NCBI GenBank assembly: GCA_027451365.1
Contig: DAIDJN010000060.1
Location: 1-16,063, forward strand
Direction: 5' to 3'
DNA from: Phycisphaerales bacterium
Lineage (GTDB): Bacteria; Planctomycetota; Phycisphaerae; WQYP01
DNA: 16,063 nucleotides
The notes under the pieces were generated by a model. That model was not told the DNA's origin. It saw only the letters and a program-made list of their open reading frames with translations, and made no database searches. Shown one piece after another: positions 3,042-9,282 of the stretch; position 1 is the stretch's first letter, and the number at the start of each line of letters is the position of its first letter. The position numbers were made by a program, and so were the translations under genes.

Positions 3042-3112
3042 GGGGACGTCGTTCAATGGGAGGACGGCGCGTTCGCAATGCGCAGATGGGGGTTCGATTC
3101 CCCTCGTCTCCA
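3042..3112 (+). tRNA. tRNA-Ala, anticodon CGC; integration target; CCA not encoded
   Basis: GGGGACG/CGTCTCC acceptor stem with the G3:U70 alanine identity pair and A73; anticodon arm GCGCG-TTCGCAA-TGCGC; T arm GGGGG-TTCGATT-CCCCT. Confidence 0.95.
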
Positions 3113-4549
3113 ATCCACCGAGTTCCCCGGTAAATCGCGGTTTTCCCCGGTGTTTATCGTGTTTTCTGGTTGTGCCGCGTTATCGACTACGGCGCTACCA
3201 GGCGCTACCGGGTGCTTAGTTTCCGCACACAAAAGCGCCCCATTGCGCGCCATACTGGTCACGCTTTCGCGAATCGCTCCCGGTGCCTGTTCGGCATTGA
3301 CTGGCAGGTTATCCGTGCCGGTTGCCCGCAGGCTCTGGCTTTCAGGCGGCAGGCTCAAGTCTGGCAGTTTGGCCAGGGCTTGGCTTTCCTGTTCCACAAG
3401 CCGATGCCCGTAAGTGTCCATGGTCAGGGTAATCGTGCTATGCCGCATAATGGATTGAATCACTTTCGGATGCGCTCCCGATGCGGCCAGCCAGCTTCCG
3501 CATGTATGGCGTAGGCTATGAAAGTCGCCCACGCGGCCCAAGTCGTCGGCGTATGGGATATTGGCGGCGGCAAGGTCGGCTTGAATCATTTTCGCCGTGA
3601 CGCCGGTTGACGGCATATTGAATGCTTTGGCCATCGGCAGTTTGCCGGTCAGGAAAGACTTGAGTATCGCGGCGGTATCCGGGCGCAGCTCAAGGCTGGC
3701 ATATTGTCGGTTCTTGGTGAATTGCCCATCAAGTTCCACGGTCGGCGGATTGCCATCCGGCTTGAAGCAGCCGGCGGTCAAGGCGCTTATCTCGCCCGCC
3801 CGCAAGCCGGTTTCCACGGCCAGCCTGTAAATCATCGCCCGCTCTTGGCCAGGCACGCCACGCCACGGCTTGGCCGTTTCAGCGGCGGCCAGCAGTCGCC
3901 GGACTTCATCCACGGCAAACGCCCGGCGTACATGCCGCCTATCGCCTTTGGCGTTCATCCCGGCAAAGCCCAGCGCAGGCGATTGTGTGGCCCGGCCATC
4001 GCGTACCATCCAGCCGCAGAATTGCTTCACGGTTTGAACGTAAGCGTTGCGCGTGCGGATATTGACACCATCCGGCCCATCACGCATTGCGGAAAAGAAT
4101 TGCTGAAGCGCAATCGGCGTTAATTGCGCCCAGAATGTAATGCCGCAAACGTCGGTCAGCTTTTGCATACGATATTCCAGCAGGGACAACCGCTTGACGG
4201 TTACGCCTTTGGCCCGCAAGTATTCAATCCAGTCGGCGGCGTGCTTGCTCAAGGGTTCGCCGGCGGCCAGCGTATGGCCTTGCAACAAGCCCCAGCGGGC
4301 CAAGACTTTCGCGGTTTGGTGCGGCAGGGTTTCAATCCACTTCGTGGTATCCTCCGGCAGGGTTTCGCCACTTGCCCGCAGGTTAATCAGGCGTTGCACG
4401 TTGCGGCCAAGGGCCCCCGTCAGGCGTTCATTTTCAAAGCCCGGCAGCCGCATGATCCGCCCGGCCGCGGTGCGAAGTTCGCAGTAAAACTTGTCATAAG
4501 GCAGGCTTTTACCGTCAGCGGTTCGGCGTGTTGGCTTGTAAATTCGCAT
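3053..4549 (-). CDS. int: Tyrosine recombinase/integrase; integrated form 498 aa with its 3' end antisense to tRNA-Ala
   Basis: Catalytic signature TGLRAGE (R), FTKN (K), FHSLRH (HxxR), MRHS (H), MDTY (Y380); SD-like AAGGA upstream; 118 aa tail after the catalytic Tyr runs through attL. Confidence 0.95.
   Translation of the reverse strand: MRIYKPTRRTADGKSLPYDKFYCELRTAAGRIMRLPGFENERLTGALGRNVQRLINLRASGETLPEDTTKWIETLPHQTAKVLARWGLLQGHTLAAGEPLSKHAADWIEYLRAKGVTVKRLSLLEYRMQKLTDVCGITFWAQLTPIALQQFFSAMRDGPDGVNIRTRNAYVQTVKQFCGWMVRDGRATQSPALGFAGMNAKGDRRHVRRAFAVDEVRRLLAAAETAKPWRGVPGQERAMIYRLAVETGLRAGEISALTAGCFKPDGNPPTVELDGQFTKNRQYASLELRPDTAAILKSFLTGKLPMAKAFNMPSTGVTAKMIQADLAAANIPYADDLGRVGDFHSLRHTCGSWLAASGAHPKVIQSIMRHSTITLTMDTYGHRLVEQESQALAKLPDLSLPPESQSLRATGTDNLPVNAEQAPGAIRESVTSMARNGALLCAETKHPVAPGSAVVDNAAQPENTINTGENRDLPGNSVDWRRGESNPHLRIANAPSSH
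3065..3150 (+). repeat. attL direct repeat (86 bp)
   Basis: Identical to 9197-9282; starts at the anticodon stem and extends 38 bp past the tRNA 3' end. Confidence 0.95.
3232..3253 (+). repeat. 22-bp repeat, putative integrase arm-type site (copy 1)
   Basis: AAAGCGCCCCATTGCGCGCCAT, identical to 9118-9139. Confidence 0.65.
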
Positions 4550-4552
4550 GGT

Positions 4553-4963
4553 TCACTTTCCTTTGCTCAAGACTGGCCGTTGTCGCGTTGCGGTCTTTGC
4601 GGTTTGGTTGTTAAATTCTATTTCCGCCGCCTTTAGCGCTTGGTCGATTCTTTCGGCCATCGCAATAGTTGTGTTGTGCCGGGCTTTTTCAATGCGGCAA
4701 AGCGTTTCTGGCGGTATTGCGGCCCGGCGTGCCAGGTCAGCTTGTGACAAGCCCAGCCGTCGGCGGGTTCGGAGAATGTCTCGCGCCAGGCTCGCTTTGG
4801 CATATTCCAACGCCGGGTATCCGCCGCCCGGTAGTTTGCCCGGCAGTTTCGGCGTGTTAAATTCCTGCTTCGGCACGCCCGCACGCTCCAGCAGTTTCAG
4901 GTAATCCCGTTCGTCCATAATCACGCGCCGCCGCCCATCCAGTTCAATCGCCTGTACGTTCAT
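4553..4963 (-). CDS. Xre/HTH_3 protein, putative HigA-like antitoxin
   Basis: C-terminal ILRTRRRLGLSQADLARRAAIPPETLCRIEKA helix-turn-helix; 3 nt downstream of the RelE gene; GAGGA SD. Confidence 0.85.
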   Translation of the reverse strand: MNVQAIELDGRRRVIMDERDYLKLLERAGVPKQEFNTPKLPGKLPGGGYPALEYAKASLARDILRTRRRLGLSQADLARRAAIPPETLCRIEKARHNTTIAMAERIDQALKAAEIEFNNQTAKTATRQRPVLSKGK

Positions 4964-4966
4964 AAT

Positions 4967-5218
4967 TCAATCCTCGTAAAATCCGTCGCGGTGTCCAATT
5001 TTCTCGATCCAAAGAATGTTATGCCGCATGTAAAATTGCACGCGGTAATCTCCGGTGCGTATTCGGAAGCGCCCAGCCAGCGGCCCGGTCAATGGCTTGG
5101 CTCCGCTTACTTCGGGCCAGCGGCCCAGGCGGCGGATAACGCTCTGTACGCGGGCATTTATGGCCACTGGCAGCCGATCCATTGTTGCCGCCGCTTCATC
5201 CGTGAATCGAACATCCAT
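4967..5218 (-). CDS. RelE/ParE-family type II toxin (toxin-first, HigB-like arrangement)
   Basis: 83 aa with KPLTG..GRFRIRTGDYRV and IGHRDGFY, the RelE-type pattern. Confidence 0.88.
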   Translation of the reverse strand: MDVRFTDEAAATMDRLPVAINARVQSVIRRLGRWPEVSGAKPLTGPLAGRFRIRTGDYRVQFYMRHNILWIEKIGHRDGFYED

Positions 5219-5224
5219 TGCCGC

Positions 5225-5254
5225 ATTCTATCCAGCCTTGATACTCGCGTCAAG
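5225..5254 (-). promoter_or_regulatory. Promoter and palindromic operator of the toxin-antitoxin-int operon
   Basis: Minus strand TTGACG (5253-5248) - 17 nt - TAGAAT (5230-5225) - 6 nt - ATG; inverted repeat CTTGA-N8-TCAAG (5237-5254) overlaps the -35. Confidence 0.75.
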
Positions 5255-5458
5255 TCTATTACGGTTCGGCTTTGCCCAGACACGCCGGCGGCTTTGGCGT
5301 CAACGGTCACCCGTAGGCTCGCCGGTGCGTATGCTACCGATGGCGATTGATTCCCAACGCTTTGGCCATAAGTATGCCTTGTTTGGTTTTTCAACATTTA
5401 CTCGAATTTTGCGACACGACAGCGTTAAGCCTTTTTTACGTGAAAAAGTACCTTTTGC

Positions 5459-5494
5459 AAAAAAAGGAGCAAAAAAAGCGAGTAAATTTGCTCC
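5459..5494 (-). terminator. Intrinsic terminator downstream of the alpA-helicase genes
   Basis: Minus strand GGAGCAAA-N13-TTTGCTCC followed by TTTTTTT. Confidence 0.6.
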
Positions 5495-5694
5495 CATCGG
5501 TCAATCTGTGGTTGATAATTTTGGTTTTGGGTTTGCATAGGGATTTTCCTTAAAAAAGTGTGAACAATCTGGGTTATCCGGCGGCTCCGGCGGCTTGGCC
5601 TCGGTGGCTGGTTTTGGGAAGCGGAATTGTCGTTGCGGACTGCTCATTTTTACACCTAATTTTTGCACACCTTTACACGCCTTAAATTCAGTCG

Positions 5695-5730
5695 CACACA
5701 CACCCCTACAACCCCACACAGGTGTGTGTG
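5695..5730. repeat. 10-bp perfect inverted repeat just after the helicase gene; candidate origin element
   Basis: CACACACACC-N16-GGTGTGTGTG. Confidence 0.5.
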
Positions 5731-5743
5731 TGGGTTTTCGGGG

Positions 5744-7582
5744 TTAGGGCGGCGCGTCGGAATTACAGACCTCATGGAAGGTCTGCGCTGGGTCCGCGCT
5801 GAATACAATCCGCTTATTCCCGGCTGCGGTAATCCGCCACGCCTTAACAGCCTTGCTTCGCCCGGTGGAAGTCTCCCAAACCTCGACCAGCCCACTAGCT
5901 TTAAGCCCGTTCAAGATTGTGGTCATAACCGGCTTGGTCAGGCCCCGCGGCCAACCCCGCAAGCTAGACAAAATGCCGTAAACGCCTTGCGGTGCGGATG
6001 GTGCGGCAAACAAGACTTCGCCCGCCTGTATAGCCTCGTGTATCAGCCGCAAAACAGCCCCGGCTAGCGGATGCTCTCTCGGCGTGTTGAATTCGCCCAC
6101 GCGATCCCAAAGGTGGTGTAATTCGCTGAATTGCAACGTGATCGGTTCTTGCAGGCGTCCAAGATTGCATTTTTCGTGCCGCAACTCAATCTGGTCCGGG
6201 TAATCTTCGCTGCGGATAATTGCCATGCGCGAACGCATCGAATTATGCCAGGCGGTACTTCCCGAATAACTTTCCCTTGAATCTTTCAATCGGGCGGCGG
6301 AAACGTGCGTTTGCAGCAGTAAACCGGCGTCGCCGGCGGCTTTTCGCAACGCGGTGATAAACTGCCGGACGTGCGCCCGCTTATTTTCATCCGCGCCGAA
6401 TGCGTCGCTGGCGTTGTCGATCAGAATAAAGCCGGGTTGGTAACTTCTAATGCGGCATACCAGACTGTCATAGGTCGGCGTCGTGCCGGCGGCGATACCT
6501 CGGCCATCACATTCAAACAGTGTCGGATTCTCGGTGCCGTCAACCAGCAGAAAATTCTCGGCCAGTGCCGCCGGATCAATGTTCCGGGCCCTGCAAATGT
6601 TTCTCAACCGCATTCGGCACATGTGCGGCGGGTCTTCCAATGAAACGTAAATAACGCGGCATTGCGTTGTCTCAATTCCGTGAAAATCGCGCCCCACGGC
6701 CACGCAGGCCGCTAATTCTAAAGCTAAAAGCGTTTTGCCCGATCCGCCGTGACCGCCAAGGCCATTGACAACGCGTCGCGCTACCCAGCCTTGCAAAATC
6801 CAATCTTGTGGCGGATCATCGGATTCAAACAGGTCGGAAACATTAACATCAGGCAAATTTTCGGCGGGCTTATTCGCTGGCTCCGCCAGCGCCCGCAGTT
6901 CTTCGATTGTCGGTAGTTGATCAGCCACGGCTTGGCCAGCTTCAATCGCTTGCTGGACGCGGTTGGCTTTGGAATACATGGCGGCGGCCCGGCCACACTC
7001 GACCATTTGCGACAAATAAGGATCGGCCATGCCGTCGCTTGGTAGCAGTCGCCCCAGTTCGCGGGCTTTCAAGGCCGCGCCCGGGTTGCCACGCCGGGTC
7101 AGTTCGTCGGCCACGGTATCGGCGCAGGGTGCAAAGTTTTGTTCGCATTCCGATATTATTGCGGAAAAAATGTCGCGGTGTTCTGGGAATGCCCAGCGGT
7201 ATTTGGCTAGCGTGCGTTGGTTCGCGTCCAGTGCGATAACCACGCGGTTGACATTCCAGCTTGGGTTTTGTGAAAGCGGTGATAACAGGCTCGCTAAAAA
7301 CTTATTTTCGAATTCAATCCAGCGGTCAACTATTTTCGGTATCGGCGTGTCAGCAGGCCCCGGTTGCGCGGCTTGCGGCCCGGCGGCGGTGGCCTTTGGC
7401 GTCGGCTCTGGCTTCTGTGCCGCGGCTCGTGGTTCTGCGGGTGGCGATTGTGCTGGCGGCGTCGCGGCGGCTGGCGAATAACTTTCGGCCTCCGGGCAAT
7501 CTTCCAGGCACGATAACGGCGGCGGGTTTTCATCAAGCGGGCAGCCATCGGCTTGTGGTGGCTCGTTAGTTTGTAGTATCAT
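5744..7582 (-). CDS. Replication protein: DnaB N-terminal-like domain, AAA_25/RepA-like SF4 helicase and possible C-terminal winged helix (start 7582 preferred, 7687 possible)
   Basis: Walker A GHGGSGKT, VIYVSLED, Walker B FILIDN, LLLQTH, YSGSTAW..SMRS; EFENKFLASLL...FPEHRDIFSAI...ADTVADEL resembles DnaB_N; AGGA before ATG 7582, which avoids overlap with alpA. Confidence 0.82.
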   Translation of the reverse strand: MILQTNEPPQADGCPLDENPPPLSCLEDCPEAESYSPAAATPPAQSPPAEPRAAAQKPEPTPKATAAGPQAAQPGPADTPIPKIVDRWIEFENKFLASLLSPLSQNPSWNVNRVVIALDANQRTLAKYRWAFPEHRDIFSAIISECEQNFAPCADTVADELTRRGNPGAALKARELGRLLPSDGMADPYLSQMVECGRAAAMYSKANRVQQAIEAGQAVADQLPTIEELRALAEPANKPAENLPDVNVSDLFESDDPPQDWILQGWVARRVVNGLGGHGGSGKTLLALELAACVAVGRDFHGIETTQCRVIYVSLEDPPHMCRMRLRNICRARNIDPAALAENFLLVDGTENPTLFECDGRGIAAGTTPTYDSLVCRIRSYQPGFILIDNASDAFGADENKRAHVRQFITALRKAAGDAGLLLQTHVSAARLKDSRESYSGSTAWHNSMRSRMAIIRSEDYPDQIELRHEKCNLGRLQEPITLQFSELHHLWDRVGEFNTPREHPLAGAVLRLIHEAIQAGEVLFAAPSAPQGVYGILSSLRGWPRGLTKPVMTTILNGLKASGLVEVWETSTGRSKAVKAWRITAAGNKRIVFSADPAQTFHEVCNSDAPP

Positions 7583-7637
7583 CGCGTATCCTATTCTTTT
7601 TTTGGCCGGGTGCTTTTCGTCGGGTGCCCGGCCATAT

Positions 7638-7874
7638 TTATGCGCGTCTAATCTTTTGCCATTTGTCGGCGGTCGGCGCTCCGGCATTTATCCAGTTTTG
7701 CAGCTCGGCAACACTCCACAATCGCCGCCGTCCCAGCCTGAATCCCGGCGGGCATCGGCCACCAGATACTAAAATTCTCCAATGACTTTCCGACACGCCA
7801 ACCAATGCGGCGGCCCCAAAGGAATCCACTGCCAGGGCAGCGGGCGCGGCAGGTGCATTTGTATGCGTACTCAT
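7638..7874 (-). CDS. alpA: AlpA-family regulator / recombination directionality factor
   Basis: AAALVGVSESHWRILVSGGRCPPGFRLGRRRLWSVAELQNWI matches the AlpA/excisionase pattern; GGGAGG SD. Confidence 0.85.
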   Translation of the reverse strand: MSTHTNAPAAPAALAVDSFGAAALVGVSESHWRILVSGGRCPPGFRLGRRRLWSVAELQNWINAGAPTADKWQKIRRA

Positions 7875-8008
7875 GGCCGCGCCTCCCGGCCAGTGCGGGC
7901 GGCGTAGGCCCGGCGTTGTGCGGCGGCTAAGGCGGCCAGCGCCCGCCGGTAGCGCTGGTAGGCTTTGCGTTCTGCGGCGGTCATATTGTGGATTTGCGCG
8001 GTCTTCAT
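7871..8008 (-). CDS. Small Ala/Arg-rich hypothetical protein (45 aa from the ATG at 8008; start uncertain)
   Basis: ATGA stop/start overlap with alpA at 7871-7874 suggests translational coupling. Confidence 0.45.
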   Translation of the reverse strand: MKTAQIHNMTAAERKAYQRYRRALAALAAAQRRAYAARTGREARP

Positions 8009-8023
8009 ATCAGTACGGCTATG

Positions 8024-8142
8024 TGTCGGTACTTTGCGCGCAGCGGTGCCCCAAAAAAGCGTAGCAAACACTACGTTTTACGCGGTTTTAGAATTTTAGA
8101 ATTATTTCCTTAAGTACCGACAAGAGTACCGACAAAGTACCG
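8024..8142. repeat. AGTACCGACA motif cluster, putative regulator binding sites
   Basis: Direct copies AGTACCGACAA at 8113-8123 and 8125-8135, partial AGTACCG at 8136-8142, inverted copy TGTCGGTACT at 8024-8033. Confidence 0.65.
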
Positions 8143-8148
8143 GCGCGG

Positions 8149-8958
8149 TTATCCCATCGCATGGGCGCGGACGGACTTCCCGGCCCGGCTGGCTAATGGT
8201 TTACCGCCGGTCTTTTTCAGTGCGGCGTTTATCCGGTCATAGGTGGCGGGCCTTGATATTCCCAGTTCAACGGCAGTGGCTCCAACATTCCGGTTGCATC
8301 TTATGTATACCTCCAGTGCATCAGTTTGCGGTTTGGTCAGCGGCTTGCGCGTCAATCTCCGCTTAGCCCTATGCCTGCCCGGCGTTTCCGGTGCAACGGG
8401 TAACGCCTTGGCGGCTTTGGCGGTTTCGGTGGCCCACGCCTCCAGCAGATTTTCGGTTTGAGCCCAACTTTCATCGCTTTGGTCGCAAGACCGCAGCGCC
8501 CGCTCGCAGCGGTGGCGCAGCGTTTCGGGCAAGCCGCGCTCAGCCATTGCGGCCACGCGCTTTTCGGCACATACCAGTACCCGCCGGGCGGTATCAATGT
8601 TCGCCTCGCGGCCTATCTGCAGCGCGGTTGTGGCGTCAATTCGCCCATCTTGCTCCCAAAACGCATCCGGCGTGCTGGCGGTTCGGTAAAGCCGTCGCGC
8701 TGCGTCCATGTCAGCGCAAAACTGCCCAACCAGTTCCAGCAGCGTAGGCTCTTGCGGCTTACTCGCGGCAATCAAAGTCGCAATTTCGGCAACCGCGGTT
8801 GCGGCGTCGCGAATCGCGGCAAATTCGGTGGCCATTAAATCGGTGTCGCTTGGCCCGGTTGTGTTGGAGTTTTCGACTTGCTTGGTTTGGTTCACGTTCA
8901 CCGTCCTTAAAAGTCCGGGCCAGCCGGGCATAACAGCGGACGGTGAATCAACCATCAT
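8149..8958 (-). CDS. Hypothetical protein with C-terminal HTH (sigma region 4 / PucR-like); start uncertain (GTG at 8895 has an AAGGA SD)
   Basis: LTKPQTDALEVY...VGATAVELGISRPATYDRINAALKK. Confidence 0.7.
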   Translation of the reverse strand: MMVDSPSAVMPGWPGLLRTVNVNQTKQVENSNTTGPSDTDLMATEFAAIRDAATAVAEIATLIAASKPQEPTLLELVGQFCADMDAARRLYRTASTPDAFWEQDGRIDATTALQIGREANIDTARRVLVCAEKRVAAMAERGLPETLRHRCERALRSCDQSDESWAQTENLLEAWATETAKAAKALPVAPETPGRHRAKRRLTRKPLTKPQTDALEVYIRCNRNVGATAVELGISRPATYDRINAALKKTGGKPLASRAGKSVRAHAMG

Positions 8959-8998
8959 GCCCGGCCAGTTCGCGGCCAGCTAAGCCGCTCCCGAAAGG

Positions 8999-9196
8999 TC
9001 ATTTTACCGGCCCTTTGGCCGATTCAACAATCAAAACAATCGCGGCCTTGATACTCTCCGGCAATTCCGCCCAGCGGTCGGCCAATTCGGTCAGTCGCGG
9101 GTCGGCGTTTTGCGCCGAAAGCGCCCCATTGCGCGCCATGCAGCTTTCGTCGCTATGCGTTTTGTGCTTGTTTTGTAGTGTTTCTGCGGTACTTGG
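8999..9196 (-). CDS. Detached integrase C-terminal segment (65 aa); in frame with int after excision
   Basis: The att repeat offset (6,132) is a multiple of 3; ORF 8999-9250 repeats DWRRGESNPHLRIANAP and continues PSTAET...DPRLTELADRWAELPESIKAAIVLIVESAKGPVK*. Confidence 0.8.
   Translation of the reverse strand, partial: PSTAETLQNKHKTHSDESCMARNGALSAQNADPRLTELADRWAELPESIKAAIVLIVESAKGPVK
9118..9139 (+). repeat. 22-bp repeat, putative integrase arm-type site (copy 2)
   Basis: Identical to 3232-3253. Confidence 0.65.
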
Positions 9197-9282
9197 CGGC
9201 GCGTTCGCAATGCGCAGATGGGGGTTCGATTCCCCTCGTCTCCAATCCACCGAGTTCCCCGGTAAATCGCGGTTTTCCCCGG
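9197..9282 (+). repeat. attR direct repeat (86 bp; tRNA-Ala 3' fragment plus 38 bp)
   Basis: Identical to 3065-3150; lacks the tRNA 5' acceptor strand and D arm. Confidence 0.95.

Follow-up and report, generated by a model that had tools for sequence, protein, structure and literature searches.

The window analysed here is a stretch of 16,063 nucleotides (positions 1 to 16,063 of contig DAIDJN010000060.1, assembly GCA_027451365.1) from a Phycisphaerales bacterium of the Planctomycetota. It contains a 6.1-kb integrative element with an integrase gene (int), a toxin-antitoxin pair, a helicase, an excisionase (Xis)-like gene and a regulator. The host target (attB) is a tRNA-Ala(CGC) gene on the forward strand (3042-3112, found with ARAGORN), which is intact. 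The core of the attachment (att) site occurs twice, at 3065-3150 on the tRNA side and at 9197-9282 at the far end, as a perfect direct repeat (86/86 identical, spacing 6,132 bp) that cannot be extended at either side. The tRNA contributes its 3' 48 nt to the core, starting at the anticodon arm, and a further 38 nt come from downstream. The element thus has the layout of a tRNA-targeting genomic island, with an intact tRNA at one end, a displaced tRNA 3' fragment at the other and an integrase inside. A second perfect direct repeat, of 22 bp and built of two 10-bp units, was overlooked by the earlier note on this DNA. Its copies, 3232-3253 on the int side and 9118-9139 on the far side, flank the core at 81 and 57 bp, one per arm; they lie 246 bp apart in attP, the joined site of the circle, and are candidate arm-type integrase sites. 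In the same-genus genome that was searched, leuA and the tRNA-Ala are present, and the next 1.5 kb is free of integrase and tail matches.

The integrase gene runs on the reverse strand (4549-3053), reads through the core antisense to the tRNA and stops at a TGA inside it, giving a protein of 498 residues; the coordinates given by the earlier note hold. Residues 213-383 match the tyrosine recombinase family PF00589 (E 1.1e-12, above the cut-off) with the full catalytic R-K-H-x-x-R-H/W-Y set (R250, K279, H344, R347, H370 and Y380; domain at 3401-3913, reverse strand). A scripted join of 9196 to 3065, as on an excised circle, reproduced the 560-residue integrase that had been proposed. It is a single open reading frame (ORF) of 495 shared residues followed by 65 new ones, which replace the S-S-H end of the integrated form and are encoded, with their stop, at 9196-8999 on the reverse strand. 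The other two frames at the far att copy run into stops after 34 and 13 codons. The cut falls 115 residues past the catalytic tyrosine; none of the six catalytic residues is beyond it, and both forms keep them, as claimed. A split of the SSV1 type is ruled out: Y380 stays on the N-terminal piece, PF00589 alone was found (no PF16795) and the host is a bacterium. Four public runs, compared with the element as contigs with small shares, showed no 9196-3065 joint, which is no evidence either way.

The 65 new residues had been regarded as one domain. About 30 of them, which overlap the arm repeat in the DNA, are unconserved; what stands is the last part, a conserved helical hairpin of about 30 residues (9100-9017, reverse strand) with the pattern L-x6-W-x2-L-P-x6-I, a predicted homodimer according to the structure models described below. 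Across elements the ends that are specific to the integrated form vary from 1 to 356 residues, and integration therefore removes a module and adds none. The C-terminus does differ between the two states, as the earlier note had it, but what it described as a swap of a 3-residue tail for a 65-residue domain is in effect the loss of the hairpin upon insertion, and not an exchange of two functional tails.

A profile built from four sequences (cut-off E <= 0.001) found the hairpin in 4,625 clusters formed at 50% identity. The top 150 range from 42 to 258 residues in length, and the ten clusters that were looked up are unnamed or "hypothetical". Among 401 genomes of the phylum this weak profile had matches in 90, and a better one matched 40 of 41 genomes preselected for a related integrase. 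L9, W16, L19, P20 and I27 are each at least 90% conserved in 42 aligned copies. Since the third codon position varies most (entropy 1.20/0.90/1.58 bits for the three positions) and a crude pS of 0.69 exceeds the pN of 0.41, it is the protein that is conserved, in line with the earlier note; conservation merely as a DNA motif is ruled out by the same codon pattern. Searches with Pfam, PHROG and, by sequence, the PDB returned no family for the hairpin, and phage and plasmid collections no significant tail match. No integrase relative was found in IMG/VR, scanned with the integrase alignment, and ESM Atlas returned only unnamed clusters, most commonly from Planctomycetota. Word-based homolog searches with the single tail gave no match, being too insensitive for a 30-residue motif; the profile searches succeeded.

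The tails sit where the window suggests that they should. A tRNA or tmRNA match lies within 400 nt upstream of 38 of the 59 tail matches with enough upstream DNA (controls: 2 of 54 windows), and in 34 of those 38 the frame is open from that match to the motif. Tail homologs at tRNA-derived sites in frame with a distant int, or else fused to integrases, had been predicted, and both were found.

Conservation of the frame across att, on which the earlier note had staked its proposal beforehand, was examined from both ends. Integrase relatives were collected from GTDB (79 loci, from the best 80 of 107 matches) and from metagenomes (best 80 of 446); the tail-side set consisted of 40 tail matches on long contigs, a subset of the phylum profile matches, with up to 20 kb behind each. 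Between the catalytic domain and the next tRNA the int frame meets no stop in 96 of 100 testable loci; the other two frames are open in 29 of 200 cases. Besides the window, 16 elements have both att copies within the DNA that was collected (the sister element on contig C58 included), and 13 of these gain the hairpin in frame. Ten of these 13 first-set tails had been used to build the hairpin profile, which makes their profile scores circular and leaves the frame test unaffected. All 11 larger elements, paired by hand with a tail match upstream on the same contig and strand, are in frame. From the tail side, 22 of the 40 can be joined, in frame, with an integrase ORF that exceeds 400 residues; L264 and L269 among them are near-identical, and L253 is the inner junction of a tandem into whose outer junction no integrase reads. 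The remaining 18 comprise one tail with a decayed integrase in frame, one in register (L276), one fused remnant, two integrase-less remnants and 13 tails without a partner copy in range.

Altogether 46 other elements are in frame, and none is out of register where integrase and tail are both present, with a chance of 1 in 3 for each. Their targets are at least 25 different tRNAs and tmRNAs, and their integrases are 28-77% identical (median 43%, 25 rows). In the integrase tree two clades of 38 and 7 rows are split at 100/100 support; all named relatives belong to the Planctomycetota except for one "uncultured bacterium". The cultured planctomycete Planctomicrobium SH664 has one of these elements (L058). 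A frame open by chance is ruled out by the frame and codon tests together. The spacing of 6,132 bp, a multiple of 3 to which the earlier note had attached meaning, is irrelevant: the core is read through in frame in elements of any length, and in 18 of the 35 in-frame elements of known length that length is not a multiple of 3. In nine loci (L042, L051, L055, L056, L061, L104, L201, L249 and L278) the tRNA lies on the int strand, so that the frame crosses it in sense; the join is in frame where testable.

The full-length form also occurs in nature. In seven fetched loci integrase, tRNA-derived peptide and hairpin form one ORF. Three of these occupy entire contigs of 6.7-11 kb, which lack a tRNA gene, end in terminal repeats (127 bp exact, 140 bp and 308 bp) and look as assembled free circles would. 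Over 2.3 kb the fused locus L203 matches the integrase end of L201, an integrated element, at 96% identity. PF00589 is present in 24 of the 120 long hairpin matches listed, 16 of these 24 proteins being 492-584 residues long, and in 23 of the 24 among the matches listed no more than 26 residues separate the end of the hairpin from the C-terminus.

The genome of the window itself holds further elements. On contig C58 (85391-94163, L001) a second intact element of the same design occupies a tRNA-Lys(TTT); its integrase, 31% identical to that of the window, reads into the tRNA, and the far att copy leads in the same frame to a similar helical segment. Right behind this tail lies a separate 65-residue ORF with its own Met, which carries a diverged copy of the hairpin. 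At a tRNA-Gly(CCC) (C57:8558-13321, L002) the far att copy and the tail are kept and the element contains no integrase match; by eye, a two-gene pair in it resembles AbiEi/AbiEii. A decayed integrase reads into a tRNA-Arg(CCG) at C73:62158-62800 (L003). This locus shares the 22-bp arm repeat of the window despite its different tRNA target, and the database protein P0005 looks like the matching tail. A weak fifth hairpin match (G000:C18:2709-2810, E 3.6e-4), with no tRNA called nearby, is probably a remnant.

The free form, then, encodes the hairpin, insertion cuts it off while sparing the catalytic residues, and selection keeps the register. That the conserved split is real and selected is close to certain. 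Under the alternative of no switch at all, the hairpin would be an ordinary stabilizing appendage, attP would overlap the gene only for compactness and both forms would behave alike. Tail-less relatives do exist, as this would have it, but some 110 stop-free codons are kept through the arm sites and at least 25 tRNA cores. Because this stretch is kept open to reach the hairpin, the hairpin matters to the free form and its loss matters too, and we give the absence of a switch hardly any credence.

In the AlphaFold model of a natural fusion (546 residues) the N-terminal, core-binding and catalytic domains are folded, residues 404-512 form a tether with a predicted local distance difference test (pLDDT) score below 50, and the hairpin folds again at 513-541. 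The DNA that encodes the tether, about 110 residues, is attP itself: arm repeat, tRNA-derived core, arm repeat. In the window the codons between the xTGT motif and the core (3313-3151, reverse strand), which are also the int-side arm of attP, are likewise open and unconserved, and correspond to the part with pLDDT below 50 in the natural fusion. Across 27 elements the longest exact match between the two arms has a median of 12 nt (17-25 nt in 8 of them), against a median of 8 between elements, where one cross match of 25 occurs; the spacing of the matches is often not a multiple of 3. By analogy with the lambda family, these repeats fit putative arm-type integrase binding sites.

Modelled alone, the hairpin of the window has helices at residues 7-14 and 21-34 (pLDDT 92). 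Two copies gave a homodimer score of 0.54, against 0.07 for the best control, a mark that 20 of 30 solved pairs attain, as against 1 of 23 single chains. The homodimer runs agree in at least 96% of contacts, with a partner pLDDT of 86 and with L9, W16 and I27 in the interface. The model lends support to a putative self-pairing of the hairpin. Tail fragments were excluded from the alignment used for the fold, and a mixed integrase/tail alignment, in which the tails were misaligned, was dropped. A fold search gave a best Z of 4.3 and nothing significant, with small oligomerization hooks among the top rows. The dimerization domain of the TP901-1 repressor CI and the C-terminal domains of CapH and CFAP410 are, like the hairpin, C-terminal two-helix hairpins of about 30-35 residues. 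At Z 3.3-4.3 and 6-14% identity the arrangement is common to them and gives no evidence of homology, and unlike the planctomycete hairpin none of these hooks is removed by recombination.

The hairpin was seen C-terminally on two proteins that are not integrases, P0230 (HTH_31, Xre-type, 125 residues) and a protein with an AEP-TOTE primase domain (L156:369-1811); other long matches look like read-through into att sites. Xre-type repressors often carry a dimerization domain. The occurrence of one hairpin in two distant integrase clades and in a helix-turn-helix (HTH) protein fits self-pairing better than docking to a single partner. Such docking, whether the partner is the Xis-like protein, a protease adaptor or a factor of the host, would turn the switch into one of partner binding or turnover. 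Amphipathic hairpins can bind other proteins, the modelling covered self-pairing only, and there is a precedent for att-dependent turnover signals: in mycobacteriophage BPs attP lies inside the repressor gene, and integration removes a C-terminal ssrA-like degron and changes the behaviour of the protein. The BPs protein is a repressor with such a degron, whereas here an integrase is concerned and its ends show no degron pattern: the C-terminal residues vary among 150 family members; most are K, R, P or E, and Ala comes last in 6. An ssrA-like degron is ruled out on this ground, and control by a degron of stability, one of the properties named by the earlier note, is not supported. We regard a docking role as distinctly unlikely.

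Another thought is that the far end of the integrated element also, or mainly, expresses the tail as a small protein of its own, which would cap the hooks of incoming or re-formed full-length integrase and so act as immunity or as a brake on re-integration. An ATG at 9139 could start a 46-residue protein, the stand-alone paralog behind the C58 tail has its own Met, and two copies of the motif are present in 5 of the 12 database members shown. However, only 10 of 52 circle forms have a Met among the 37 residues that precede the helix, the ATG of the window belongs to the arm repeat, and independent expression would not need conservation of the frame across att. This makes a separate small protein very improbable.

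We therefore come to a reading in which the hairpin is a dimerization hook. The integrase would begin with domains for arm binding, core binding and catalysis, continue with a disordered tether encoded by attP (about 110 residues) and end in the hairpin of about 30. On the incoming or excised circle the hook would dimerize the integrase, and pairing may help it to assemble on attP and to capture attB. Once inserted, the element would make only the hook-less enzyme, catalytically complete and with lower or changed activity, so that further recombination would be damped; the element would therefore be stable and its excision would depend on a Xis-like protein. Excision would give the hook back. 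An integration event would in this way set the oligomeric state of the enzyme that performed it, and the integration state may control integrase activity or directionality, as the earlier note had proposed. We think it probable, with some reserve, that the enzyme made from the free circle is dimer-competent and proficient in integration, and that insertion removes its hook. For directionality there is also a conventional candidate in the sequence, the putative Xis-like gene at 7874-7638.

Several observations weigh against the hook model. The dimerization is predicted by a model of 35 residues, and it is we who infer which reaction the hook favours. In L048 and L063, two of the 16 elements with both att copies, the extension gained is 72 open codons long and lacks the motif. 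Four of the 100 testable integrases stop straight after the catalytic domain and a fifth, L105, stops before the core, from which it follows that tail-less versions exist or that decay is common. L276 (G409:C4, tRNA-His) is in register and yet has a TGA in both core copies; the T-loop of tRNA-His reads TGA on the antisense strand. The terminal repeats of the fused contigs could also stem from collapsed tandem arrays.

The main rival to the hook model is a suicidal integrase with a late cut: the hook would be needed for any recombination, the integrated form would be dead, and excision would be carried out in trans by full-length enzyme, supplied by a superinfecting element or by the inner junction of a tandem, where int reads into the tail of its neighbour. 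The very strong conservation of hairpin and frame agrees with this, as does the occurrence of tandem arrays and fused remnants (L253, L271), and archaeal suicidal integrases are rescued in trans according to the accessible part of PMC8371274. However, the catalytic and DNA-binding domains are all intact, and single elements keep a Xis-like gene as well as an int placed right behind a gene with a promoter match. The cut integrase of phage Mx8, moreover, stays active, to go by the accessible part of PMC6070905. On balance we consider a dead integrated form unlikely, though worth keeping in view.

The archaeal enzymes proper (SSV1, pTN3 and pT26-2) resemble the planctomycete ones in having att inside int, tRNA targets, a partitioned gene and scope for chimeras between elements. 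In these enzymes, as described in the available parts of PMC8371274 and PMC7253208, the split leaves the catalytic tyrosine on int(C) and neither piece is active, whereas one piece of the window integrase retains every catalytic residue. Self-disrupting recombinases are called exclusively archaeal in the accessible part of a 2021 review. The closer parallel is Mx8, in which attP lies inside int and integration gives the gene a new 3' end and leaves the enzyme functional (accessible part of PMC6070905); Mx8 and SSV are named as integrases extending across attP in the part of the Islander paper that was available (PMC4383910). The Mx8 enzyme is likewise a bacterial tyrosine integrase with attP within the gene downstream of the catalytic tyrosine and a C-terminus that is replaced on integration, and Mx9 is similar. 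Its own sequence continues with an antisense-tRNA-like peptide and then about 110 residues. The cut enzyme reportedly has lower activity. Mx8 Int has no hairpin-profile match even at E 100 and a marginal integrase-profile score of 2.4 bits; because the hairpin is missing, the element of the window works like Mx8 but falls outside its family. Mx8 is a 49-kb phage with one target, whereas the planctomycete elements are 4-18 kb and larger and use at least 25 tRNA and tmRNA targets. Unlike in Mx8, the part that they lose is a defined 30-residue, predicted dimer hook common to two integrase clades.

In the literature that was searched, which covered few subscription journals, no description of the hairpin/integrase family in the Planctomycetota was found; the supplementary tables of Islander and TIGER may list such elements. 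The accessible parts of PMC12884075, PMC13626063 and bioRxiv 10.64898/2026.06.07.730663 contain nothing on it. Judged from the sequences, the self-rewriting layout is the rule in a large, phylum-wide group of planctomycete elements, where previously Mx8 and Mx9 were the known bacterial tyrosine integrases of this kind. It is the Mx8 principle in a new guise: the layout is real, conserved and general, the domain has no name, and the proposed mechanism is concrete enough to test. Since the lost piece is small, defined and modelled, the role of the removed C-terminus, a question raised by Mx8, can be tested with two proteins and three point mutants. The layout also accounts for the short "hypothetical proteins", thousands in number, that lie next to planctomycete tRNA fragments. 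It means that annotated integrases of these genomes represent the cut form, which matters when integrases are mined as tools, and it makes the hairpin usable as a marker of island ends and of free circles.

More tentatively, the hairpin may be a portable, so far unnamed dimerization hook that serves as a built-in memory of the integration state, with the oligomeric state toggled by recombination. Because the hook is common to integrase clades and targets, the inner junctions of tandems would yield chimeric full-length integrases, and stand-alone hooks are possible decoys. If true, the control of directionality or activity through the oligomeric state of the recombinase would operate in thousands of elements.

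The other genes of the window element all lie on the reverse strand. Upstream of int are an Xre-type HTH protein, the likely antitoxin (4963-4553; HTH_31, E 7.5e-9), which ends 3 nt ahead of the int start, and a RelE/ParE-type protein, the likely toxin of a type II pair (5218-4967; ParE_toxin, E 5e-4, below the curated cut-off). The same pair precedes int in the same order in L034. A sigma-70-like promoter match (10/12; 5253-5225) upstream of this run of toxin, HTH protein and integrase is a lead only, as the promoter scan gave no more matches than shuffled sequences. From the region 5253-4553 a transcript on the circle could continue through attP into the tail and on to the regulator at 8958. 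A RepA-like AAA_25 helicase (7687-5744, E 1.7e-31) forms the replication module. The Xis/AlpA-like protein (7874-7638) matches HTH_17 at E 1.1e-5, just under the cut-off, its role being suggested by the family. A 269-residue protein with a C-terminal HTH (8958-8149; HTH_30, E 1.2e-5), a likely regulator, starts 40 nt past the stop of the tail. Finally, outside the element, positions 127-270 downstream of a tRNA-Pro(GGG) recur on C63 and twice on C77 near a tRNA-Pro(CGG), as matches of 45-73 bp.

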